A stretch of DNA of 64,000 nucleotides from an uncultured Spirochaetales bacterium (GCA_964410865.1 CAYPIQ010000005.1:7037-71036), one strand, 5' to 3'. Counted from the stretch's first letter, positions 8,301-20,177 are shown. The notes: generated by a model not told the origin, from the letters alone. Program-made: numbers and translations.

Positions 8301-8897
8301 GTGTTGATTCCCGACGGGACTGCAGAGTATGAACTGGTTGTAAAAAGGTCCCGGTTTCTCGCATGGGCAGGTTATATCGAATCCACGGAAGCAGCCAGGG
8401 ATGAGGTCAAACGGCTCAAGGGATTTTATAGCGACGCGACCCACGTGGTCCATGCCTGCATAACCGGCCCCGCCGGCGACCTGTTCAGTGTGAGCGACGA
8501 CCGGGAACCCTCGGGTACCGCGGGACGGCCGGTGCTGGATATTCTTAAAGGGAGCGGTATTACCAATATCCTGGTGACGGTAACCCGCTGGTTCGGCGGA
8601 ACAAAGCTTGGTACAGGCGGTCTGGTAAAGGCCTACGGCGATGCGGCCCGGAGCGTACTGGAACGGCTGCCGGTACGGGAACTGGAGGTTCGCCGGGATT
8701 TTACGGTGCGGTTGGTATACCGCTATTACGAACCCGCGGTCCGTTTGCTGGAGCAGCATGGTGGTACGGTAACAGCCAACGAGTTTGCCGAAGAAGTGGT
8801 TCTGCGGGGAACAATCGGGGAAGCCGCCGCAGAGCGTTGGGAACAGGATGTTAAAGATTTGACCGGCGGGGGAAGTGAGGTGAAGTGGAAAAGGTAA
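8301..8897 (+). CDS. yigZ: YigZ/IMPACT family protein
   Basis: VKRSRF, ATHVVHA, SDDREPSGTAGRP, VTRWFGGTKLGTGGLVKAY. Confidence 0.92.
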   Translation: MLIPDGTAEYELVVKRSRFLAWAGYIESTEAARDEVKRLKGFYSDATHVVHACITGPAGDLFSVSDDREPSGTAGRPVLDILKGSGITNILVTVTRWFGGTKLGTGGLVKAYGDAARSVLERLPVRELEVRRDFTVRLVYRYYEPAVRLLEQHGGTVTANEFAEEVVLRGTIGEAAAERWEQDVKDLTGGGSEVKWKR

Positions 8898-8934
8898 AAT
8901 AGCCCGTCGCGTCAATACTAAATCTAGTTCGCTT

Positions 8935-9185
8935 TATTTCGCTGCGGTGTTCGGTTACCTCTATCTCTATCGGGGGAATGTCAAAGACCTGCCGCCGTCG
9001 GTAATCTACTACCGGCTCCTGCGAGAGATCATTCCTACAGTGGCTGCACACAGAATGATGGTGCTCTATTATCCTGTCGGGATTCTCGACCATCTTGAGT
9101 GTCGAGCCTTTGTGCCCCTCATGGCCTCCGGGTTTTTTCCCCGATCGTTTCCTGCTCTGTTTCGGCGGTTTTTTCATTCAGTCGG
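8935..9185 (-). pseudogene. IS66-family transposase N-terminal fragment
   Basis: KKPGGHEGHKG and zinc finger CSHC...RRQVFDIPP..EVTEHR typical of IS66 TnpC; truncated at both ends. Confidence 0.8.
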
Positions 9186-9863: not shown

Positions 9864-9885
9864 ATTATGTAGGTGAAAACATAAT
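9864..9885. promoter_or_regulatory. Palindromic operator candidate upstream of intI
   Basis: ATTATGT-N8-ACATAAT perfect 7-bp arms, ending 14 nt before the intI ATG. Confidence 0.45.
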
Positions 9886-9899
9886 TTTGGATAAGCAGT

Positions 9900-11084
9900 A
9901 TGGTTTTGGAAATCAGTGGAGACGGTAAAAAATCACTCCAGATAAAAACCCCATATCATGAATCTGTCGTAAATGCCATGCGCACCATTCCGGGGAGACA
10001 TTGGTCTGCCGTAAAAAAGGTTTGGTTAATCCCGGATACACCCTTTCACCGTGAAAAGCTGCTTTCTTCCCTGTATGAAACGAAACTCTTTACCTATCAG
10101 CCGAACCGGAAAGATGATTCAACTAATCAGAAGCATCTGTACCTTCGATTCCATCAGGCTGCCCGTACCCGTCATTTTAGCTCGAGGACGGAAAAGAGTT
10201 ACCGACAATGGATACAAAGATACCTCCACTACTATAACGGGCTCGAACCGGAAAATCTCACAGGGTCACATATCAACAAATTCCTTTCGTATCTTGCCGT
10301 GAAAAGAAAGGTAAGTCCCTCTACCCAGAATCAGGCTTTGGCTGCGCTTTTCTTCCTCTATAAACAGGTGCTCAACAAAAAGGTTGATGATCCTGATTCG
10401 ATCATTCGAGCGGAAAAACCTAAACGGCTTCCTGTTGTTTTAAGCAAAACAGAAGTGAAAAAGGTCATCTCACATGTACCCGAGGACAAAAAGCTAATAG
10501 CCGCTCTTCTGTATGGAACCGGAATGAGGTTGATGGAGTGTTTACAGCTCCGCGTAAAGGATATTGATTTAGAGTGTAATGAAATACGAATCAGGGATGC
10601 GAAAGGCGCAAAGGACCGGATCACGATGATCCCGGAATCACTGAAAACAGAATTGAAAAAGCAATTAACTCGCTCACAGTTGATTCACAAGCAGGATCGT
10701 TCTGCAGGGTGGGGCCGTGTACAGCTTCCCTATGCAATTGAGCGAAAATATCCGAATGCATCTGCAGAATGGCAATGGCAATGGGTCTTTCCCCAGCAAA
10801 AGCGATGGAACAATCCTGAGACTGGAGAAGAAGGAAGACACCACATAGATCCCTCTCTCGTGCAGAAAGCAGTAAAGAAAGCCGTTCTTGCAAGTGGAAT
10901 AACCAAGCGAGCCTCCTGCCATACATTCAGGCACTCATTTGCAACACATCTTTTGGAAGACGGCTATGACATACGAACAGTTCAAGAGCTGTTGGGCCAC
11001 AGTGATGTAAAAACAACAATGATCTATACCCATGTGCTGAATCGAGGTCCACAAGGAGTAAAAAGCCCCCTGGATGGGTTATGA
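9900..11084 (+). CDS. intI: Integron integrase with N-terminal extension (394 aa)
   Basis: SAM-like domain (SPSTQNQALAAL), GMR, KGAKDR, HTFRHSFATHLL, LGH, IYTH, plus the IntI-specific insertion GWGRVQLPYAIERKYPNA..WQWQWVFP. Confidence 0.96.
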   Translation: MVLEISGDGKKSLQIKTPYHESVVNAMRTIPGRHWSAVKKVWLIPDTPFHREKLLSSLYETKLFTYQPNRKDDSTNQKHLYLRFHQAARTRHFSSRTEKSYRQWIQRYLHYYNGLEPENLTGSHINKFLSYLAVKRKVSPSTQNQALAALFFLYKQVLNKKVDDPDSIIRAEKPKRLPVVLSKTEVKKVISHVPEDKKLIAALLYGTGMRLMECLQLRVKDIDLECNEIRIRDAKGAKDRITMIPESLKTELKKQLTRSQLIHKQDRSAGWGRVQLPYAIERKYPNASAEWQWQWVFPQQKRWNNPETGEEGRHHIDPSLVQKAVKKAVLASGITKRASCHTFRHSFATHLLEDGYDIRTVQELLGHSDVKTTMIYTHVLNRGPQGVKSPLDGL

Positions 11085-11266
11085 TATTAAGACATTGGAA
11101 AAGGAGAATTATACGGACCCGGATAAAATGGTTCTTTATTATGTGGGAAACCTATACTGTTTCTGAGAAGTGAATTACACAGTAACCAGAATATATTCAT
11201 AGCAGATTATACGGACAAATGGATACCAACCGGTGTTTATACGGGTCAGTAGAATTTATGTTATAT
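11085..11266 (+). other. attI region of the integron
   Basis: Core G/TTATAT at 11260-11266; GTTATATAGCAA is the exact reverse complement of TTGCTATATAAC at the end of cassette 1; three TTATACGG direct repeats upstream. Confidence 0.8.
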
Positions 11267-11316
11267 AGCAAAAAAAATTAAAGTAATATAATGAATAATT
11301 TAATAAGGGAATATAG

Positions 11317-12369
11317 ATGATAGAAATCTATTTTGATGAAGCAGGTAACACTGGACATGATTTATTAAATTCTGAGCAGCCCCTCTATGTTCTAAGTTCA
11401 ATAAAAATATTAAATGATGTAGCAAAGCAAAAATTAGAAAGTAGTTTTACTGATATTGATCTATTGCATTTTAAAAGGAAAAAGAATTCTGCCTCTGGAA
11501 GAAAAGAGATTCTTGATTTTTGGGATAAAAACTTTGATTTTTTGAACGAAAATAGTAAAAGTATAGTAATCCATAAAAAATACATGATTGTCTGTCAAAT
11601 GTTAAATTATTTGGTAGAACCACAGTTATATGAAGATGGAATTGATTATTATGATGCCGGGATGAATATTGGTCATTCAAATATGATGTATATGTGCATT
11701 CCTGGTTTTTGTGGTAGTGGTTTAGCCAATATGCTTTATAAAGCATTTATAAATATGTTTAAAATTAAAGATCAAAAATCAATAATTACATTTTATAAAC
11801 TATTAGATTTAATGGAGAAAAAATCTAGTTCGGAAGAATTTAAAACTGATATATTCATTCTTAAAAGATCGATAACAGAAATAAGTGAAACTCTACAAAT
11901 TGTCAATAAATATGTTTTAGATCCTTCTATGCATTCATTAATTTCTTTGATTACTCTATGGAATAATGAATTAGAAGAGGAATTCAATGTATTTCATGAT
12001 AGATCAAATACAATATTGAATCAAAAAGAAATCTTGGATTTTCTCAACGATATAGAAGGTGATGAACAAAGTATTGGATATGGAGAGTTTAAAGCAACAT
12101 TTCCTATCAAAATGGATAGCTTTCGATTTATTAGTAGTGATAACTTTTCAATAAAAATAGTAGATATAATTAGCAGCAGCTTATTATATGTATCAATAAA
12201 TGATGATGATTTTGCTAAAGAGCTTAATAAAATAATATCTAATTGGAAGTGGACTAATAATATTATGCCTTCTTCAAATGTAGAACCTATTCCAGAAAGA
12301 ATAAAACGACAAGGAGATATTGATTCATTAGATTTCTTTGCAAAAAAGATAATTGAAAAAGGATTGTAA
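11317..12369 (+). CDS. Integron cassette 1: DUF3800-like (RNase H fold) protein
   Basis: N-terminal IYFDEAGNTG and C-terminal IKIVDII motifs; very AT-rich; bounded by attI and attC1. Confidence 0.78.
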   Translation: MIEIYFDEAGNTGHDLLNSEQPLYVLSSIKILNDVAKQKLESSFTDIDLLHFKRKKNSASGRKEILDFWDKNFDFLNENSKSIVIHKKYMIVCQMLNYLVEPQLYEDGIDYYDAGMNIGHSNMMYMCIPGFCGSGLANMLYKAFINMFKIKDQKSIITFYKLLDLMEKKSSSEEFKTDIFILKRSITEISETLQIVNKYVLDPSMHSLISLITLWNNELEEEFNVFHDRSNTILNQKEILDFLNDIEGDEQSIGYGEFKATFPIKMDSFRFISSDNFSIKIVDIISSSLLYVSINDDDFAKELNKIISNWKWTNNIMPSSNVEPIPERIKRQGDIDSLDFFAKKIIEKGL

Positions 12370-12376
12370 AATTGCT

Positions 12377-12511
12377 ATATAACAACCACTTGGAGTTGAC
12401 CTGGCGGTGAATATGGCAAAGAGATTGTTGATTTGGAGAACAGGGGTTACAATGGTTAAAGTGATAGGGCTAAGTAAGGACAGCGCCAGGCAACTCAAGT
12501 GAACGTTATCT
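12377..12511 (+). repeat. attC1 (135 bp)
   Basis: R'' ATATAAC, L'' CACTTgGAGTTGaCCTGGCG, L' CGCCAGGCAACTCAAGTG, R' GTTATCT; two extrahelical bases. Confidence 0.93.
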
Positions 12512-12530: not shown

Positions 12531-13445
12531 ATGAATAACTTACCTATTAAAATATGTCCAAAATGTAAAAATAATATGATTAATAATAATGAAGATGTTA
12601 TAACAGCTCAATCTTACAATGATTGTATAAGAAAATGTTTAAGATGCGGAATTGGATATTCAAACGCAAAATACAATCCCAAAATAATTTATAAGAATAT
12701 TGAAGATAATATCGCTAATGAAATCAAAGATAAGAATATTGAAGATATTATCAATAAATCTCTAAACATCAGAAATAGACCAACAAAATTAAATAAAGCT
12801 AAAATTTCGACATCAGAAGATGCATTAACCTATTCTTTTATGAAATATCTAATAGAAAGTAATCAAATAACAAAGCTGATAAAAATAATTGATTCTACAA
12901 TAAAAGAATTTAATAATATTGAAGTATACTTATGGGGAGTAAATATCGTTAATAATAATATTGAAAAGATTGAGACCCTTAAGACTATCTTAGTTAAAAA
13001 ATATAAGGAAAATTTAAATTCATTATCTGAACCGGATATAATAATTACAGGAGATACATTTACTATAATTATTGAAGTAAAATATAAAAGTCCAAATGAA
13101 GTGAAAAATACAAATAGTCTTCATAAATATATACGCAATAATTTTTATGATGATTTAGAAAAAGCAATAGAATGTGAGCATTATGAGTTAATAAGAAATT
13201 GGACAATACTAAATGAATTAGAAGAAGACAATGCAATATTAGTCAATTTAGGGGATATAAAACTATTTAATGATAAAAATAAATTAAAGCTAGAATATTT
13301 TGAAAAATCATTAAACCAAAATAATAAAAGAAAATTTATAAAATTAAAATGGGAAGAATTATTTCATTCTGATATATATTTCTCAGATACAATGAAAAAA
13401 TATTTAAAGAAGAAATTTTTCAAGATAACAACCACTTGGAGCTGA
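12531..13445 (+). CDS. Integron cassette 2: Zn-ribbon plus PD-(D/E)xK nuclease
   Basis: CPKC and CLRC pairs; SEDALT; SEPDIII...IIIEVKYKS; stop codon falls inside attC2. Confidence 0.75.
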   Translation: MNNLPIKICPKCKNNMINNNEDVITAQSYNDCIRKCLRCGIGYSNAKYNPKIIYKNIEDNIANEIKDKNIEDIINKSLNIRNRPTKLNKAKISTSEDALTYSFMKYLIESNQITKLIKIIDSTIKEFNNIEVYLWGVNIVNNNIEKIETLKTILVKKYKENLNSLSEPDIIITGDTFTIIIEVKYKSPNEVKNTNSLHKYIRNNFYDDLEKAIECEHYELIRNWTILNELEEDNAILVNLGDIKLFNDKNKLKLEYFEKSLNQNNKRKFIKLKWEELFHSDIYFSDTMKKYLKKKFFKITTTWS

Positions 13446-13555
13446 CATGGCGGTGAATGTGGCAAAGACATTGTGTTTTTGAAGGACTGGAGTTACAATT
13501 GCTAAGAAAGTGTTTTACTCGATGCGGCGCCATGCAGCTCAAGTGAACGTTAAAT
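13423..13555 (+). repeat. attC2 (133 bp)
   Basis: R'' AGATAAC, L'' CACTTgGAGCTGaCATGGCG, L' CGCCATGCAGCTCAAGTG, R' GTTAAAT; homologous to attC1 with compensatory changes. Confidence 0.93.
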
Positions 13556-13800
13556 TTCAAGATTGTGTACTAAATCAAGGCAAAAGAACGACGGTAGTCA
13601 GTGAGCTGGTAAAAGTGGTTACCTTATGGGTTTTCACTAATACAAAATATTTTATTTGTTTCTTATAGTACCACTTTTCCTAGCTCATCGGGGATAAGCT
13701 CTGATAGTACATCTCTTTCGATTTTGCCTTTGTTTACATTCATTCTTTATGAACGAACGTAGTCTTTCGAGATATCGATGAACGCTTTCGAGATCTTGAA
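13550..13800 (+). other. Integron cassette 3 body: ORF-less, internally palindromic
   Basis: Start GTTAAATTTCAAGAT matches the reverse complement of ATCTTGAAATTTAAC at 13793-13807; no long ORF; nested inverted repeats 13577-13730. Confidence 0.8.
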
Positions 13801-13952
13801 ATTTAACATGTCGTTGGAACAGCCAAAACCTTTTGTCACGGTTTTTGCGGTTCTTCTTTAGGAATGCTTGTTGTAACAACGCGGCAAAAACCGCGCCAAT
13901 CCTTCGGCCTCTCGGCCTCAGGCCGGTTTTGCTGCTCAACTCGTCGTTATGT
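13801..13952 (+). repeat. attC3 (152 bp, different family from attC1/2)
   Basis: R'' ATTTAAC, GTTGgAACAGCcAAAACC pairing with GGTTTTGCTGCTCAAC, inner stem CGGTTTTTGC/GCAAAAACCG, R' GTTATGT. Confidence 0.85.
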
Positions 13953-13978
13953 TGACGCCTTCGGCGCGGAGGAGAAAA

Positions 13979-14194
13979 ATGAAGAAGATGATTTGCTTTA
14001 CCTTATTTTTTCTATCAATGGGAGTGTATGCACAAGATATACAAACAACCACAATCTCAATATTCCAGAAAGCGTATAATGTTAAATTTATTGTCATATC
14101 AGGGGACGCATATATAAACTGGACAGATTTTATGGCCAATCAGCAAGGTAACAACTTAGATATCAACAAATTACATTTGTTTAACTCAACATAA
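13979..14194 (+). CDS. Integron cassette 4: small secreted protein (71 aa)
   Basis: GGAGG SD then MKKMICFTLFFLSMGVYA|Q signal peptide; cassette start GTTATGTTGA matches end TCAACATAAC. Confidence 0.7.
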   Translation: MKKMICFTLFFLSMGVYAQDIQTTTISIFQKAYNVKFIVISGDAYINWTDFMANQQGNNLDINKLHLFNST

Positions 14195-14215
14195 CAATAA
14201 AGCGGTAAAATTGTG
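14189..14215 (+). repeat. Truncated attC4 (R'' arm only)
   Basis: R'' ACATAAC present; no complementary L'/R' arm found downstream. Confidence 0.55.
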
Positions 14216-14242
14216 GAATCTTAATTCTTTCGGAGGATTTTT

Positions 14243-14319
14243 ATGAAAAAGATTCCATTAACTGAATTAGTGGAGGCAGTAGCCGCTGATTTGCGCCGAA
14301 CAAACTATACGCCGCGGAG
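14243..14319 (+). pseudogene. N-terminal stub of a tyrosine recombinase-like gene
   Basis: GGAGGA SD plus MKKIPLTELVEAVAADLRRTNYT, reminiscent of RIT-type recombinase N-termini; breaks after about 25 aa. Confidence 0.3.
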
Positions 14320-14592
14320 GATTGGTGGTCTATTAAAACTACCCTTTCCACCCACCAGAGAATGACGGTCGAGTATGTTACTAAAGATACCGAAGGAAGT
14401 CGTTTTCTCAATACCCTTAGGACGAACTCCCGGCTGGAGCCAGCGCATCTGGAGATATTTACGAAGCTGGGCTTGTCCGGCAGACCGCTGAACCGCCGTT
14501 TGTTAAAACGGAAAATCGGTAGTGATAACAAAAATAACCAACCTATTTTACAGGAGTGACTTAGCCTCTTTTTTGGCAAAGTTGGGTTAGGT
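14320..14592 (+). mobile_element. IS1634-like transposase C-terminal fragment and right end
   Basis: WSIKTTLSTHQRMTVE...EPAHLEIFTKLGLS; ends AAGTTGGGTTAG. Confidence 0.6.
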
Positions 14593-14705
14593 CTATTTGC
14601 CCGGTTTGAGGTACTTTGAAGACCAACAGGAGGTGCCTGTTCGCTCCAGAACGACGATTTCTGTCGATTTTAGGCGGAATGTCCCCATTTTCCCTGGTTT
14701 TCTCC

Positions 14706-14734
14706 TTGACACATAGGATCACTTTTCTTACAAC
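14706..14734 (+). promoter_or_regulatory. Sigma70-type promoter candidate for the fakA operon
   Basis: TTGACA-17 nt-TACAAC, ending 27 nt upstream of the ATG. Confidence 0.5.
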
Positions 14735-14761
14735 TTTTTACACGGATTTAGGTAAACTTCT

Positions 14762-16573
14762 ATGACGCAAACAGAAAATACGACAGCGGTAATAAGAGAT
14801 AGGATAGAGAATATATACAAGTATCTCTATCTACACAAAGAATACATAAACAGGTTGAATGTTTTTCCTGTTCCAGATGGCGATACCGGTCTTAATATGG
14901 CGCTGACCATGCAAGGTGCTTTGGCAAATATGCGCGATTATGAAGAAGCATCAATGCCGGCGGGAGAATATTTGAAAAATTTTGCTGAACAAATGCTGCT
15001 CAACAGTAGAGGGTGTTCAGGAGTCATCTTATCCCTTTACTGTCAGGGCGTCTCACAAGTAATTGAGAATAACGACTTTTCTAAAGAAAATATATATAGA
15101 GCTCTTGAAAACGGATATAAAAACGCGTACGAGGGCACCGAAGATCCGAGGGAAGGAACCATGCTTACGTTAATGCGTGAACTTAAAGACAAGTATGGTG
15201 AACTTATGAAGGGAGACGATGACCCTGTAAATATCACGAAACAATGTATCCCGTATTTAAAAGACGTTCTCAACAAAACTCCCGATATGTTGCCGGTACT
15301 AAAACAAGCCGGAGTTGTAGATTCCGGTGGCGCGGGATTCCTGATTATTCTCGAGGGAATTAATAGAAAGTTAAAAGGCAACGAATTGACTCTTAGAAGC
15401 TTGCCGGTTTCAATTATACTGAATATAAATAAAATTGCAAAAAAGTATCTCGACGGCAGACTTTCAAAATTAAATAAAAAAACTATCGAAGCTCTGCTTA
15501 CAAATATTGAGACCGAAAAGTTGCATAATTCTCGGTTGTCCAAAATAATGGAAGATATTGGGGGGGTCGTTCGGAATCTGCAGGATAATGGGAATCGATT
15601 GTCGAAGAAAGAAACAATTATTAATAGTCTAGAGGATATGGATGGTTCATGGAATCCTGAAATTAAATTCAAATATTGTACGGAATTCGTTTTAGAAACA
15701 GACCGAATATCATCAAAAGAGCAAATAAAAGGAATCATCGGCGGATACGGAGATAGTCTGATAATACTCAACAGCGGCGATAAATATAAAGTTCATATAC
15801 ACACCGATAAACCGGAAGCGGTTTTTAAAGATGTTTCAAAATACGGCAACCTTATATTTACCAAAGTCGATGATATGAACAAACAACACAAAAATCTCGT
15901 GAGTAACGATTCAATCGATTACGAACGAGAGAAAAGTGTTTTTTGTTTAGTTTCCGGAAAAGGATTTGCCGAAATCCTGAAAAAGCTCGGGGCCGATGAT
16001 GTATTCTGCTACGGAAAAAACAAGCCGTCCGTGGAACGGATCGTTAAAGAGCTAGACAGACTGAGAACCAAAAATATAATCGTCGCTGCCGACGACAAAG
16101 ATATTCTGATGGCGCTCAAATATGCTGGTTCGCTGAGTAAGTCGAATATACACATTGTCGAAGCCGATAATGTAATCTCGCTTATTAGCATGTTGCTAAA
16201 TATTTCAAAGGATTTAGATATTACCAATACAATTGAATCGATAATGAATAGTCTGAATAATATTCGTTTTTTTGGAATTGCTAAGGCCGTCAGAAATACT
16301 GCAACGGAATATGGTATAAAAGTTAATAAAAATGAGTTTTTTGCAATGTACAACGGCTCAATTATTCTTTCCGACAAGAACCTGAAAACACTGATGATTA
16401 AGGCAATTCAAAAACTGAGAAAAGATGAAAGTCTGATATCGTTATACCGGGGCGTCCGTGCCAAAAGAGAAAAGAGTTTTATTCCGAAACTGAAAGAAAC
16501 GTTTCCCGATTGTGAAATTGAAGAATATTACGGTGGGCAATATAAATTCGATTATTACGTAACCTTGGAGTGA
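14762..16573 (+). CDS. fakA: DAK2-domain fatty acid kinase catalytic subunit
   Basis: LNVFPVPDGDTGLNM, PREGTMLT, VVDSGGAG, YCTEF, KVHIHT, KVDDM, YYGGQ. Confidence 0.92.
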   Translation: MTQTENTTAVIRDRIENIYKYLYLHKEYINRLNVFPVPDGDTGLNMALTMQGALANMRDYEEASMPAGEYLKNFAEQMLLNSRGCSGVILSLYCQGVSQVIENNDFSKENIYRALENGYKNAYEGTEDPREGTMLTLMRELKDKYGELMKGDDDPVNITKQCIPYLKDVLNKTPDMLPVLKQAGVVDSGGAGFLIILEGINRKLKGNELTLRSLPVSIILNINKIAKKYLDGRLSKLNKKTIEALLTNIETEKLHNSRLSKIMEDIGGVVRNLQDNGNRLSKKETIINSLEDMDGSWNPEIKFKYCTEFVLETDRISSKEQIKGIIGGYGDSLIILNSGDKYKVHIHTDKPEAVFKDVSKYGNLIFTKVDDMNKQHKNLVSNDSIDYEREKSVFCLVSGKGFAEILKKLGADDVFCYGKNKPSVERIVKELDRLRTKNIIVAADDKDILMALKYAGSLSKSNIHIVEADNVISLISMLLNISKDLDITNTIESIMNSLNNIRFFGIAKAVRNTATEYGIKVNKNEFFAMYNGSIILSDKNLKTLMIKAIQKLRKDESLISLYRGVRAKREKSFIPKLKETFPDCEIEEYYGGQYKFDYYVTLE

Positions 16574-17454
16574 GTAGCAGAATGGATAAGAGGATTTTGA
16601 TCATTACCGGTGATAATCTGGGCCTTTCGAGGGATCAAATAGATTACCCGGATGTAGAGATTTTAAAATTTCCGGTGGTCGTAGGCGATAAAGAATATCG
16701 GGAAAGCAGCGAATATACGGCACAATGGCTCAATGAGAAATTTCTGAAGGAAAAAGTCGTTGCAAAGTCGTCTGCGATCGTAAGCGGAGAGCTGGTCGAA
16801 ATAGTAGAAAGAAATAAGGATAAGTATGACTTGATAATCCATGTCGTGATGAGCAGCGTGATGTCGGCAACGACCTTGGCTATAGCAAACAAGGTGAAGG
16901 ACATGTATGAAAATACCATTCCGATCATCAATATCGACAGCCGGCAGGTTATGGGGGGCACGGGGAATGTAGTCTTGGGTGTCGTCGATATAATCAAGGA
17001 AACAACCAATGCGGATGATATTATAAAATTGGCGCAGGAGCTTGTTCACAATACCTTTAGCTATTTTGTTTTGGCGGATCTGAACTATCTCTATAAGGGC
17101 GGCAGAATCGGAAAAGCACAAGCGTTGATGGGTTCTGTTTTGCGTATTATTCCGATTGTTGGACTGATGGGGGATGATAGAGACGGCCAAATAGTCCCCG
17201 TGGGAAGAGGAAGAACCTTCAAACAAGCAAATTCACACATCCTCGAGTTAATAAATGCCAAAATGAAGGAAAAATCGGCAAGGGGAGTGAAAAGATTGAA
17301 TATGATCGGGTTTGACGATAATAAAGATGCAGTTGCCGATTTGGAAACAAAGTTAAAAACAATTCCCTGTGACGATTTCGTTGTGGGGAAGGCGGATCTT
17401 GTCGGTGCCGTGTACGCAGGGCCGAAATCGTATGCGGTGTCTGTAACTCTTTGA
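16570..17454 (+). CDS. fakB: DegV-family fatty acid binding protein
   Basis: SSVMSAT, IDSRQ, DLNYLYKGGRIGKA..LMGSVL.IIPI, VYAGP; overlaps the fakA stop. Confidence 0.88.
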   Translation: MSSRMDKRILIITGDNLGLSRDQIDYPDVEILKFPVVVGDKEYRESSEYTAQWLNEKFLKEKVVAKSSAIVSGELVEIVERNKDKYDLIIHVVMSSVMSATTLAIANKVKDMYENTIPIINIDSRQVMGGTGNVVLGVVDIIKETTNADDIIKLAQELVHNTFSYFVLADLNYLYKGGRIGKAQALMGSVLRIIPIVGLMGDDRDGQIVPVGRGRTFKQANSHILELINAKMKEKSARGVKRLNMIGFDDNKDAVADLETKLKTIPCDDFVVGKADLVGAVYAGPKSYAVSVTL

Positions 17455-17455
17455 A

Positions 17456-18067
17456 ATGGGAAATATGACCATGTATTTGACCTATGTGATATGTTTATTA
17501 TCAGGGTATCTCACAGGTTCGATATTGTTTGCCTATGTGATTACCAAATTGGTAAAAGGCGAAGATATAAGGAATCTGGGTAACCACAATCCGGGAGCGG
17601 CGAACACTTTTAAAAGCACGGGCAAGTTTTGGGGTATCTTGACGGGAGTTTTGGACGGTTCAAAGGCATTAATACCAATGCTCTTTGCAAGCCGTTTCTT
17701 TGAGGTATCCACGATTTCCGTTGGGCTCATCGGTATCGGAGCAATAATCGGGCATGGTTATCCGCTCTTTTTTAATTTCAAGGGAGGACGTGCCGCTGGG
17801 ACCTTAATGGGAATATATTTATTTTTTATTCCTAAAGAACTGCTAATTGCTTTTGTTATTATCCCATCGTTGGTTTTTTCGCTGATTAAAAAATACCGAA
17901 GTTTTTGGACGCCGTTTGGGATAATCGTGTTCAGTGCTGTCACATCGTTGTTTCTTGATCACACCACAGACGTAAAAATCATGGTTTGCGCGAGCGGCAT
18001 TGTTGGATTGTATTTTAATAGACATTTTCTCCCAAAAATAGTAAAAGCACTCACGCGACACGGATGA
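17456..18067 (+). CDS. plsY: Acyl-phosphate:glycerol-3-phosphate acyltransferase
   Basis: GSILFAY, DIRNLGNHNPGAAN, DGSKA, GHGYPLFFNFKGGRAA. Confidence 0.9.
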   Translation: MGNMTMYLTYVICLLSGYLTGSILFAYVITKLVKGEDIRNLGNHNPGAANTFKSTGKFWGILTGVLDGSKALIPMLFASRFFEVSTISVGLIGIGAIIGHGYPLFFNFKGGRAAGTLMGIYLFFIPKELLIAFVIIPSLVFSLIKKYRSFWTPFGIIVFSAVTSLFLDHTTDVKIMVCASGIVGLYFNRHFLPKIVKALTRHG

Positions 18068-18119
18068 TGAAGAACTGTTGTCGATTGCCCCTGCGTGAAC
18101 TATCCTGTTCCCCGCGAAG

Positions 18120-18169
18120 TGCCGGCGGGGAAACTCGAACTCCCACACCCGTGCGGGCGGCGGATTTTT
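18120..18169 (-). pseudogene. 3' half of a tRNA-Leu-like gene (att-type remnant)
   Basis: Minus strand AAAATCCGC-CGCCCGCACGGG-TGT-GGGAG TTCGAGT TTCCC-CGCCGGC-A: anticodon 3' arm, long variable arm, T arm and acceptor 3' strand; 5' half absent. Confidence 0.7.
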
Positions 18170-18233
18170 ACCCATCTTCGACAATTTGATTTTACAACTA
18201 CTTTTGGCGTAATAAATTAGATATAGAACGGAC

Positions 18234-18400
18234 CGCATTCAAAGAGTCAAAGCAACACTTGAGGCATATTCCAGTGGAGTGAGATAGCCGAAGCGCTTCC
18301 TCGGTCGTGTGTTTAACCTGTATTCGAGCATAGCAATTTCTTCATCGGATAACAAGGCATAATCGGTTTTTTTCGGCCATTCCCTCAGTGTTAACCCGAT
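18234..18400 (-). mobile_element. IS30-family transposase C-terminal fragment and right end
   Basis: PKKTDY..LSDEEI..LEYRLNTRPRKRFGYLTPLE..VAL. Confidence 0.8.
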
Positions 18401-18439
18401 TGCTTTCTCCACACTGCCTTTGGACAAAGCTGTCAAATA

Positions 18440-18850
18440 CACATGATCCGGTCGATGAATAATACGTTCGGATTACTCAAAGATTTGCTGGAACTTGAAC
18501 GCTTGTTGAGAGGAGAATCGGAATGACCGAGAAATGTCAAGGAAATTACGTACATATTGTCAAGATAAACTCCAGCGTACCCGAAGAAGCAATTATTGAA
18601 GGAAGGATGGGTGTGGCTCCCCACTCCCCAGGAGACGATTCTGGAAGCCCGAGCCGAACTGGAAAACGCAGTAGGTTCAGTTGTTGATACCGACCAGTGG
18701 ATGAAAGATCATCCGCCATCGGTGGTATTCGGACCGGGGACCGGATCACTGGCCCACCAAACGGATGAATATATCGAAATAGATAAGATTAAAGAGGCTG
18801 CAGGGATAATGGCCGGTACCATTCTCGACTGGTGCGGCTATGAAAAATAG
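18440..18850 (+). pseudogene. M20/ArgE-family deacylase remnant
   Basis: SSVPEEAIIEGRMGVAP, frameshift, ETILEARAELE...VFGPG...AHQTDEYIEI; stops and deletions. Confidence 0.7.
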
Positions 18851-18992
18851 AGGAGCCTGGGGCTTTCCGGAAAAGGTGCCTGTAATGCTCAGGCGGCTCC
18901 GGAAGTTGGAAAAGCAGCAGCCTTGACATTTATGACCCTGACGGTACAATGGGGGTAGATGTAAGATTACCCATCAAATCAAGGAGAAACAG

Positions 18993-20177
18993 ATGAATGT
19001 AGAAAGTCTTGTTGCCGACAGGGTCAGGATTATAAAGCCCAGCGCCATACGGGAGATTCTCAAGGTCGTAGGAAAGCCCGGGATGGTTTCGCTGGCCGGG
19101 GGGATACCGGCCCCCGACAGTTTCCCCATGGACATCATGGAAGATCTCGTTCAAAAGGTTTTCATGAAATATGGCTCTACAGCACTTCAATACGGAACCA
19201 CCGAAGGCTTTATGCCCCTCCGGGATGCCCTGGCCGTATACCTCGGTAAGAAGGGAATAAAAACCACCGGCGAACAGATATGCATCACCAGCGGCTCCCA
19301 GGGATGCCTCGATGCTATAGGCAAGGTTTTCATTAATCCCGGCGATAAAATCGCTATTGAAGCCCCCACATATTTGGCGGCCCTGCAGGCCTTCAATCCC
19401 TACGGGCCTGAATATGTAAGTATAGAAACGGACGAGAACGGCGTAATACCGGAATCGCTGAACGAGGTTCTTACCAAGAATAAGATAAAATTCATATACA
19501 TTATCCCGACATTTCAGAATCCTACCGGAAGGACAATACCCCTGGAAAGAAGGAAACAGATCACAGACATCATTCGGCACCATGATGTCCTGACTGTTGA
19601 GGATGACCCCTACGGTGAACTCCGTTTTCGGGGAGAAGTACAACCGCCGATCGCCACCATGGCACCGGACCAGGTGATGTACCTCAGTACGTTTTCGAAG
19701 ATCTTTGCCCCGGGCTTAAGGCTGGGATTCTATGTTGCTCCCGGTGGTGTCAATAACTGGCTCGTACGGGTCAAACAGGGGATAGATCTGCATACCAGTA
19801 CCTTTAACCAGGCCCTGGCGGCGGAGTATCTCTCCGGAGGATACCTGGAAAAGCAGCTGCCGAAGATCGTCAGTCTCTACGCTCCCAAGCAGAAAGCTAT
19901 GCTAAAAGGGCTGGATGATTTCTTCCCCGATTCTTTCACCTGGTCGAAACCGGAGGGCGGAATGTTTATTTGGGCCGAGGGACCCGAAGGTTTTGACGCC
20001 GAGGAGATGTATCCAAAGGCCATCGAGAAGAATGTAGCCTACGTTCCGGGTAAGTTTTTCTATGCGAATCCGGAAGACGGTCCCGGAACAATGCGGCTTA
20101 ACTTTACCATGTCAACGGCGGAAGAGGTATATGAAGCCGTAAAGACCCTGGGGGGGGTTATAAAGGCGGAGTTGTGA
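18993..20177 (+). CDS. PLP-dependent aminotransferase, class I (2-aminoadipate transaminase/MocR-like, no HTH)
   Basis: SAIREIL, SLAGGIP, ITSGSQ, FQNPTG, EDDPYGEL, STFSKIFAPGLRLG, PEGGMF. Confidence 0.92.
   Translation: MNVESLVADRVRIIKPSAIREILKVVGKPGMVSLAGGIPAPDSFPMDIMEDLVQKVFMKYGSTALQYGTTEGFMPLRDALAVYLGKKGIKTTGEQICITSGSQGCLDAIGKVFINPGDKIAIEAPTYLAALQAFNPYGPEYVSIETDENGVIPESLNEVLTKNKIKFIYIIPTFQNPTGRTIPLERRKQITDIIRHHDVLTVEDDPYGELRFRGEVQPPIATMAPDQVMYLSTFSKIFAPGLRLGFYVAPGGVNNWLVRVKQGIDLHTSTFNQALAAEYLSGGYLEKQLPKIVSLYAPKQKAMLKGLDDFFPDSFTWSKPEGGMFIWAEGPEGFDAEEMYPKAIEKNVAYVPGKFFYANPEDGPGTMRLNFTMSTAEEVYEAVKTLGGVIKAEL

Follow-up and report, generated by a model that had tools for sequence, protein, structure and literature searches.

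The integron integrase gene (intI) carried by a 64,000 nucleotide stretch of DNA from an uncultured Spirochaetales bacterium (GCA_964410865.1, CAYPIQ010000005.1:7037-71036; the window hereafter means the whole of that stretch) encodes, ahead of its recombinase core, an additional N-terminal domain which to judge from profile comparisons and a structural model is very probably a divergent member of the HARP family. We propose, with a probability of roughly 45-50%, that this domain acts as a structure-specific DNA-binding accessory of the integrase. Integron integrases are the textbook recombinases that read the shape of DNA, in the form of the folded bottom strand of the attC site, and not its sequence, and to our knowledge mechanistic work on IntI has all been done on the short proteobacterial enzymes (IntI1, VchIntIA). 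The intI gene of the window lies at 9900..11084 on the + strand and its 394-residue product comprises the HARP-like domain, a linker, a SAM-like core-binding domain and a catalytic domain with the insertion specific to IntI. The N-terminal domain occupies residues 1-66 (9900..10097, +) and the linker, which is not conserved, residues 67-82 (10098..10145, +).

Behind the linker the protein looks like an ordinary integron integrase. Pfam places the core-binding domain (Phage_int_SAM_4) at 10137..10388 on the + strand (residues 80-163, E 7e-25) and the tyrosine recombinase catalytic domain (Phage_integrase) at 10440..11039 on the same strand (residues 181-380, E 4e-37), the latter also covered by the alignment with 2a3v. 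The protein reaches 453.5 bits with the NCBIfam model for integron integrases, TIGR02249 (cut-off 265), and the match runs contiguously from residue 84 to residue 394 on model positions 5-315 of 315. Inside this contiguous match lies the IntI-specific insertion (10674..10859, +; approximately residues 259-320, equivalent to positions 176-236 of the IntI core hidden Markov model), which contains AIERKYPNASAEWQWQWVFP, and the motif AIERKYP...WQWQWVFP is present. An alignment of 47 homologues shows the catalytic residues R210, K235, H341, R344, H367 and Y376 as invariant columns and the insertion is also invariant across it. The only solved IntI structure, that of VchIntIA/IntI4 (2a3v, 320 residues), aligns to residues 83-392 at an E value of 2.5e-83, and both this enzyme and the class 1 integrase IntI1 have the same SAM-like domain, catalytic domain, insertion and catalytic residues as the window protein. 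On these comparisons the gene product is a functional-looking integron integrase, of the inverted type described below. Classical IntI proteins are around 320-337 residues long, lack a HARP-like domain and start at what would be residue 75-80 or so of the window protein, whose integrase part begins at approximately residue 80-84, leaving some 65-75 additional residues ahead of the classical start. A preliminary description of the locus, made from the sequence alone, had counted about 65-70 extra residues before the SAM domain in a protein of 394 residues, and Pfam, TIGR02249 and 2a3v, all of which place the core at around 80-84, agree with this.

These additional residues could in principle be an artefact, an untranslated leader, a mis-called start or a chance extension of the open reading frame (ORF), with the real start near residue 80, and the ATG at 9900 indeed has no obvious Shine-Dalgarno motif upstream of it. 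A start further upstream is impossible because an in-frame TAA lies at 9882-9884 with no start codon between it and the ATG, and the nearest internal methionine (M26) would halve the fold. When the database was searched with the whole protein, thousands of integron integrases came back, and the N-terminal domain was present in 98 of the 120 best homologues and in some 100 IntI proteins from several phyla altogether. Most of these begin at their own Met1 with 'MxVxI'. The homologous proteins are 386-507 residues in length with both ends the same, and across the 120 homologues the linker varies in length between roughly 10 and over 100 residues and is often rich in Pro, Glu, Ala and Ser. Because the domain is conserved from residue 1 and the linker that follows it is not, a mis-called start or untranslated leader is excluded; the 66 residues are conserved in this way in around 100 independent assemblies across phyla, and AlphaFold2 folds them at a predicted local distance difference test (pLDDT) score of 91. 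We give the artefact next to no chance and consider it effectively refuted, and with it falls the downstream translation start which the preliminary description had raised against its own proposal. The pattern of conservation indicates that the extension is translated and under selection, and a hypervariable linker fits a flexible tether for an accessory DNA-binding module.

The sequence signature of the domain is PY..vv.A(R/K).iPGR.W....K.W.iPD and the consensus of 73 aligned N-terminal domains, which have 20-67% identity to that of the window, reads MxVSI....G.L.V..PYD.....A....PGR.W....K.WL.PDT......LL..L..TGLF. Every member of this set has W35 and W42, and conservation is 90% or higher at P18, P45 and L54. 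Among the polar positions those conserved most strongly are basic (position 28 is K or R in 95%, with 68% at position 33 and 77% at position 40), and they flank the two invariant tryptophans. In sequence and profile alignments these three positions match the residues of the K..P.R.Y....K.W motif in 4o66, the HARP domain of SMARCAL1, and this combination of conserved basic residues and tryptophans is consistent with a nucleic-acid binding role.

Several independent comparisons point to the HARP family. HARP (PF07443) was the sole non-integrase family matched in the window protein by Pfam at E<10, with scores of 15.4 bits for the whole protein, 18.4 bits for residues 1-80 (E 0.0015) and 18.9 bits for the 66-residue domain. 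Taken individually, 51 of the 73 homologous domains matched it (E<0.1, best E 2.7e-6), and 18 of the 73 also touched DUF5710. A search of all PDB sequences with the single domain gave 4o66 as the only match at E<10 (E 0.32), and the same entry ranked first when the profile of the 73 domains was used (E 0.0028). Secondary structure elements are predicted at residues 4-7 (strand), 12-16 (strand), 21-28 (helix), 34-36 (strand), 41-45 (strand) and 48-60 (helix), and the AlphaFold2 model (pLDDT 91.2) has the same order of strand, strand, helix, strand, strand and helix. This is also the fold order of the SMARCAL1 domain, with which it shares the signature ...Y...l...(K/R).lP.R.(W/Y)....K.W.f. When the model was compared with the PDB using Foldseek, the top matches were 4o66_A and 4o66_C with a probability of 0.97, template modelling (TM) scores of 0.61 and 0.60 and 67 aligned columns, equivalent to the full length. 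Against BFVD the top matches, at probabilities of about 1.0, included a 'HepA-related protein', a 'SWI/SNF-related ... regulator', SMARCAL1-like proteins and phage helicases, with MotA and DUF5710 further down the list. The preliminary description had likened the peptide LQIKTPYHESVVNAMRTIPGRHWSAVKKVWLIPD (residues 13-46) to HARP from its residue pattern and had suggested a structural comparison; the resemblance holds at the level of Pfam, the PDB profile search, profile-profile alignment and the Foldseek comparison of the predicted model, where 4o66 came out on top.

The closest sequence relatives of the domain lie in bacterial and phage proteins rather than in SMARCAL1, to which its identity is only about 15%. 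We searched 1.84 billion representative proteins exhaustively with the profile of the N-terminal domains using HMMER, which gave 4333 matches with E<=1e-3, of which 692 had E<=1e-10; many of the matches hold the domain in 2-4 tandem copies. In Pfam scans, top matches had HARP at scores of 27-55 bits, which exceed the cut-off, and then SNF2-rel_dom and Helicase_C, an order which by its domain content is the classical HARP architecture in bacterial form. These ATPases (among them P0149, P0260, P0122 and the phage 'HepA-related protein') share with the integrase domain the consensus FPYDP.LV.AVK.iPGRRWD...K.W.VP. A profile-profile alignment (hhalign) of the integrase domains with 35 HARP repeats taken from SNF2 proteins gave a probability of 99.6% and an E value of 7e-24 over 57 columns, and 21 of these 35 SNF2-linked repeats matched Pfam HARP on their own. 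The setting of the module differs between the two kinds of protein. SMARCAL1 has two HARP copies directly upstream of its SNF2 motor and the bacterial and phage ATPases have 2-3 tandem copies ahead of SNF2 and Helicase_C with no recombinase domain, whereas the window protein is bacterial, has a single copy and is a tyrosine recombinase; neither an SNF2 motor, the usual partner of HARP, nor a helicase domain was found in it by Pfam and NCBIfam scans.

The pairing of HARP-like domains with tyrosine recombinases extends beyond integrons. Among the best 150 matches to the profile there were 51 tyrosine recombinases and 20 SNF2 proteins. In most of the 51 recombinases, proteins of 480-790 residues without the IntI-specific insertion, SAM_4 and Phage_integrase are preceded by a tandem run of 2-4 HARP-like domains (for example P0126, P0127, P0129, P0132, P0141, P0146, P0165 and P0168). 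Their nearest NCBIfam families are the XerA-type recombinases and IntI; all of them fall below the IntI cut-off and two pass that of XerA_Arch. From this domain content the fusion of HARP to a recombinase is a recurrent architecture of which the integron integrase would be the single-copy form. It is conceivable, though in our view rather unlikely, that HARP modules in one to four tandem copies define a hitherto undescribed branch of XerA/IntI-like recombinases sensing folded single-stranded or branched DNA, and it is just as doubtful that the integron integrase arose inside that branch or borrowed its module from it. If true, part of the IntI family would have a dedicated accessory domain for its single-strand, structure-reading lifestyle, and the recombinases with several HARP copies would point to hitherto unrecognised mobile elements that act on structured DNA. 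Many of the remaining matches among the best 150 are proteins of 200-400 residues (P0121, P0123, P0125, P0130, P0131, P0135 and others) made up of three tandem HARP-like repeats and nothing else recognised by Pfam or NCBIfam; some may be fragments, and if complete they would be stand-alone HARP arrays. The search also brought up a protein of 2835 residues (P0254) with two HARP-like repeats at its extreme C-terminus (residues 2676-2802).

A role in binding DNA structure is suggested by what the relatives of the domain do. In SMARCAL1 the HARP domains confer a preference for forks and for junctions of single-stranded and double-stranded DNA and make the motor an annealing helicase, biochemistry that is reportedly due to Ghosal et al. 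in 2011 (EMBO Rep), Betous et al. in 2012 (Genes Dev) and Mason et al. in 2014 (PNAS). PDB entry 4o66 itself is titled 'substrate recognition domain'. Further support comes from the partners of the module: wherever an attached enzyme could be identified in the best 150 matches, it was either a DNA translocase or a tyrosine recombinase, and both kinds act on branched DNA. By analogy, a HARP module tethered to IntI would provide the enzyme with a further grip, one that does not depend on sequence, on DNA that is branched or partly single-stranded. Its possible targets would be the base or the loop junction of the folded attC bottom strand, where single-stranded and double-stranded DNA meet, the replication fork, lagging-strand template or gap at which the attC hairpin forms, or the atypical Holliday junction left by recombination of attC with attI, which is said by Loot et al. 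in 2012 to be resolved by replication. Such a grip might raise the local concentration of integrase on the structured substrate or stabilise the synapse, and the core recombination chemistry would be that of an ordinary IntI. The module could instead contact protein and not DNA, serving integrase multimerisation, auto-inhibition or the recruitment of a host factor such as the single-stranded DNA-binding protein SSB or a replisome component, and the tandem arrays of the domain which exist as stand-alone proteins of 200-400 residues could act as scaffolds. We consider this distinctly improbable, as the conserved signature combines basic with aromatic residues, as would suit contact with nucleic acid, and the characterised members of the family bind DNA according to the 4o66 title and the literature.

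The arm-binding domains of lambda Int are likewise small DNA-binding modules attached N-terminally to the core of a tyrosine recombinase, and the resemblance to the present case is one of functional analogy. If the HARP-like domain worked in this way, it would recognise particular duplex sites in attI and link them to the core site. The presumed attI of the window, whose function is inferred, is the stretch at 11085..11262 (+) between the intI stop and the crossover, and it holds three direct TTATACGG repeats at 11109-11116, 11207-11214 and 11237-11244, equivalent to +25, +123 and +153 after the stop, with the likely crossover GTT at 11260-11262 (+176 after the stop). Very similar attI layouts are seen in integrons from other phyla that carry the N-terminal domain (carriers hereafter), with similar repeats at equal offsets. 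The N-terminal location, the size of around 65 residues and the flexible linker all mirror the arm-binding domains of many tyrosine recombinases, and Foldseek matched the model to the sequence-specific double-stranded DNA-binding C-terminal domain of MotA with a TM of 0.61. The same repeat layout at equal offsets is however present in L001, L002, L006 and L011, whose integrases lack the domain; the repeats do not co-vary with it and are therefore not its private target. Moreover, no Pfam arm-binding family, including those of lambda Int, matches the window protein, and the relatives of the domain bind structure and not sequence. We therefore rejected the reading of the attI repeats as the main explanation for the domain and think arm-type binding unlikely; a role for such binding in setting the direction of recombination at attI, or its efficiency, is likewise doubtful. 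The simpler explanation is that the repeats are accessory core-type IntI sites, comparable to DR1 and DR2 of attI1. More generally, inverted integrons of several phyla have a conserved layout in which (C/T)TTAT(A/G)CGG-like repeats recur three times behind the stop, at around +20, +120 and +150, ahead of a GTT(A/G) crossover near +170; it is seen in the window, L089, L082, L005, L087, L001, L002, L006 and L011.

The integron of the window is small, with only two cassettes separated from intI by 178 bp of intergenic DNA, and the cassette block has a G+C content of 27-33% compared with around 50% in the flanks. In classical integrons intI is divergent from the cassette array, whereas here the cassettes share the strand of intI and the array follows the gene downstream, the layout of the inverted integrase group also found in the inverted integrons of Treponema and other non-proteobacterial phyla, of which L005 shares the N-terminal domain. 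Two attC-like sites come after promoterless-looking ORFs. The first cassette ORF (11317..12369, +; in a region of 27-29% G+C) encodes a DUF3800 protein and is followed by an attC site of 135 nt (12377..12511, +; R'' ATAAC, R' GTTAT, z-score -3.2), and the second (12531..13445, +), which has no Pfam match, is followed by a site of 133 nt (13423..13555, +) with about 82% identity to the first over 88 nt. The bottom (-) strands of both sites form an R-box stem, a gap of 2-3 nt and a stem of approximately 18 bp whose 3' arm has two bulged bases, and their centres of some 73-77 nt have no stable structure, so that the long attC sites with large loops ascribed to this integron in the preliminary description were right for both sites. 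Sites were located with an anchored-alignment heuristic which misses divergent sites and whose background on shuffled sequence was 0-1 sites per 64 kb with the loosest threshold and zero with the stricter ones; a strict finder based on the RYYYAAC/GTTRRRY motif misses the attC sites of the window, whose R boxes are ATAAC/GTTAT. A possible third, shorter attC-like palindrome (GTAACAACGCGGCAAAAACCG...CGGTTTTGCTGCTCAACTCGTCGTTAT) lies at 13860-13950 below the threshold of the finder.

The inverted layout is common to the carriers. In 12 of 12 carrier loci the heuristic finder detected no attC upstream of intI, and it found at least one downstream in eight of the 12. Nine carriers other than that of the window, retrieved by exact-protein look-up, all have housekeeping genes upstream and, downstream, same-strand cassette-like genes where sequence exists or else a contig break 200-500 bp past the stop. 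Of the 19 loci that lack the domain and have two or more sites on the same side of intI, 10 have the array upstream and nine downstream. The domain thus occurs only in inverted integrons and the inverted layout does not need it, as the many inverted integrons which, unlike that of the window, lack the domain illustrate; we rejected the domain as the cause of the inverted orientation, nine of the 19 domain-less loci with arrays being inverted as well.

The domain is rare among integron integrases at large. We scanned two collections, keeping the 80 most query-like loci of around 590 confirmed, so that these are non-random samples; the domain was found in two of 80 loci in a scan of one genome per GTDB species (L005, a Treponema metagenome-assembled genome (MAG), and L078, an Elusimicrobiota MAG) and in two of 80 loci in a scan of Joint Genome Institute (JGI) metagenome contigs. 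In a neighbour-joining distance tree of 198 IntI cores, which has no support values and whose sampling is biased towards relatives of the query, 89 carriers including that of the window form one pure clade and 12 Nitrospira-type carriers a second, and a single larger clade unites 102 of the 103 carriers with 24 short integrases, a distribution that fits one or few gains followed by losses. Named sources of carriers include Treponemataceae, Rectinemataceae, Spirochaetales, Nitrospira, Omnitrophota and Paceibacterota. As a clade-associated minority which is always of the inverted type, the carriers do constitute a distinct integrase subclass as had been suggested, in the phylogenetic sense.

A number of observations weigh against a HARP-derived, structure-specific accessory. 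The domain of the window fails the Pfam gathering score for HARP (15-19 bits compared with 25), and the MotA C-terminal domain, which binds double-stranded DNA, was returned from the PDB at a TM similar to that of 4o66 (0.61), so that binding to duplex DNA has to be kept in view. Close relatives without the domain (P0055, P0089, L001 and others) lie within the carrier clade and have the same attI layout, and the domain is therefore dispensable for the basic reaction. A single HARP copy on a recombinase may also behave unlike two or three copies beside an SNF2 motor. Finally, the preliminary description had suggested that a junction-binding module could assist the folding or synapsis of long attC sites with large loops. 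Longer attC sites or larger loops would then be an expected correlate of the domain and this was not statistically established: the three carriers with real arrays have attC sites of 123-134 nt compared with a domain-less median of around 90 nt (p = 0.035, n=3), the difference is lost when all six carriers with sites are compared with domain-less loci (p = 0.46), and domain-less integrons with attC sites of 125-144 nt also occur. Taking these points together with the evidence from the family, we hold structure-specific DNA binding at the roughly 45-50% given at the outset.

The surroundings of the carrier integrons and of one domain-less locus yielded several further observations. In the window a 108-residue ORF with an IS66 transposase zinc-finger, which looks like a transposase fragment, lies on the - strand at 8851-9177, around 700 bp upstream of intI, and those 700 bp hold no convincing gene. 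Beyond the cassette block, from 14762, are the housekeeping genes for a FakA-like protein, DegV and PlsY. The array of one HARP-bearing integron (L081) contains two copies of a group II intron reverse transcriptase (RVT_1 and GIIM; 14033-15292 and 18400-19659) which sit between attC sites of 127 nt. Downstream of another HARP-bearing intI (L083) a pair encoding a 291-residue SAM_4 recombinase and an IS91-type Y2 transposase is duplicated (12860-14928 and 16635-18703). In L087 the HARP-bearing intI (10001-11359, 452 residues) has an ABC transporter operon on one side and the operon of secY and ribosomal proteins on the other; no cassettes were detected and the integron may be empty. L066 has, immediately downstream of an intI without the domain, a weak HARP-like match (11149-11262, +; 20 bits, E 3e-4), which adjoins a strong attC-like site of 135 nt at 11305.

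Both the domain and the enzyme are known and it is their combination that appears undescribed. The 'inverted integrase group' has been described as a phylogenetic group (PMC3575428) and integrons of Treponema have also been described, the intI of T. succinifaciens being 1233 bp and encoding 410 residues (PMC3607928), a length compatible with an extension of the size of the N-terminal domain. Both papers describe the orientation and make no mention of an N-terminal domain (PMC3575428, PMC3607928). A full-text literature search, of incomplete coverage, found no paper tying HARP, SMARCAL1 or PF07443 to integron or tyrosine recombinases, and the precomputed Pfam annotation of the 120 listed homologues gives integrase domains only. 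InterPro or PROSITE may already flag some copies of the domain.

The finding extends the HARP domain to a second enzyme class, which is useful for annotation as Pfam now misses these copies, and it flags the multi-HARP recombinases as a set. A sizeable environmental clade of IntI, including the integrases of Treponema-type integrons, bears a module whose known relatives recognise forks and junctions. This bears on how the folding and capture of attC may be coupled to replication or to single-stranded DNA and on how the atypical Holliday junction may be handled, and it raises the question of portability, that is whether the module when added to a short IntI would alter its efficiency.

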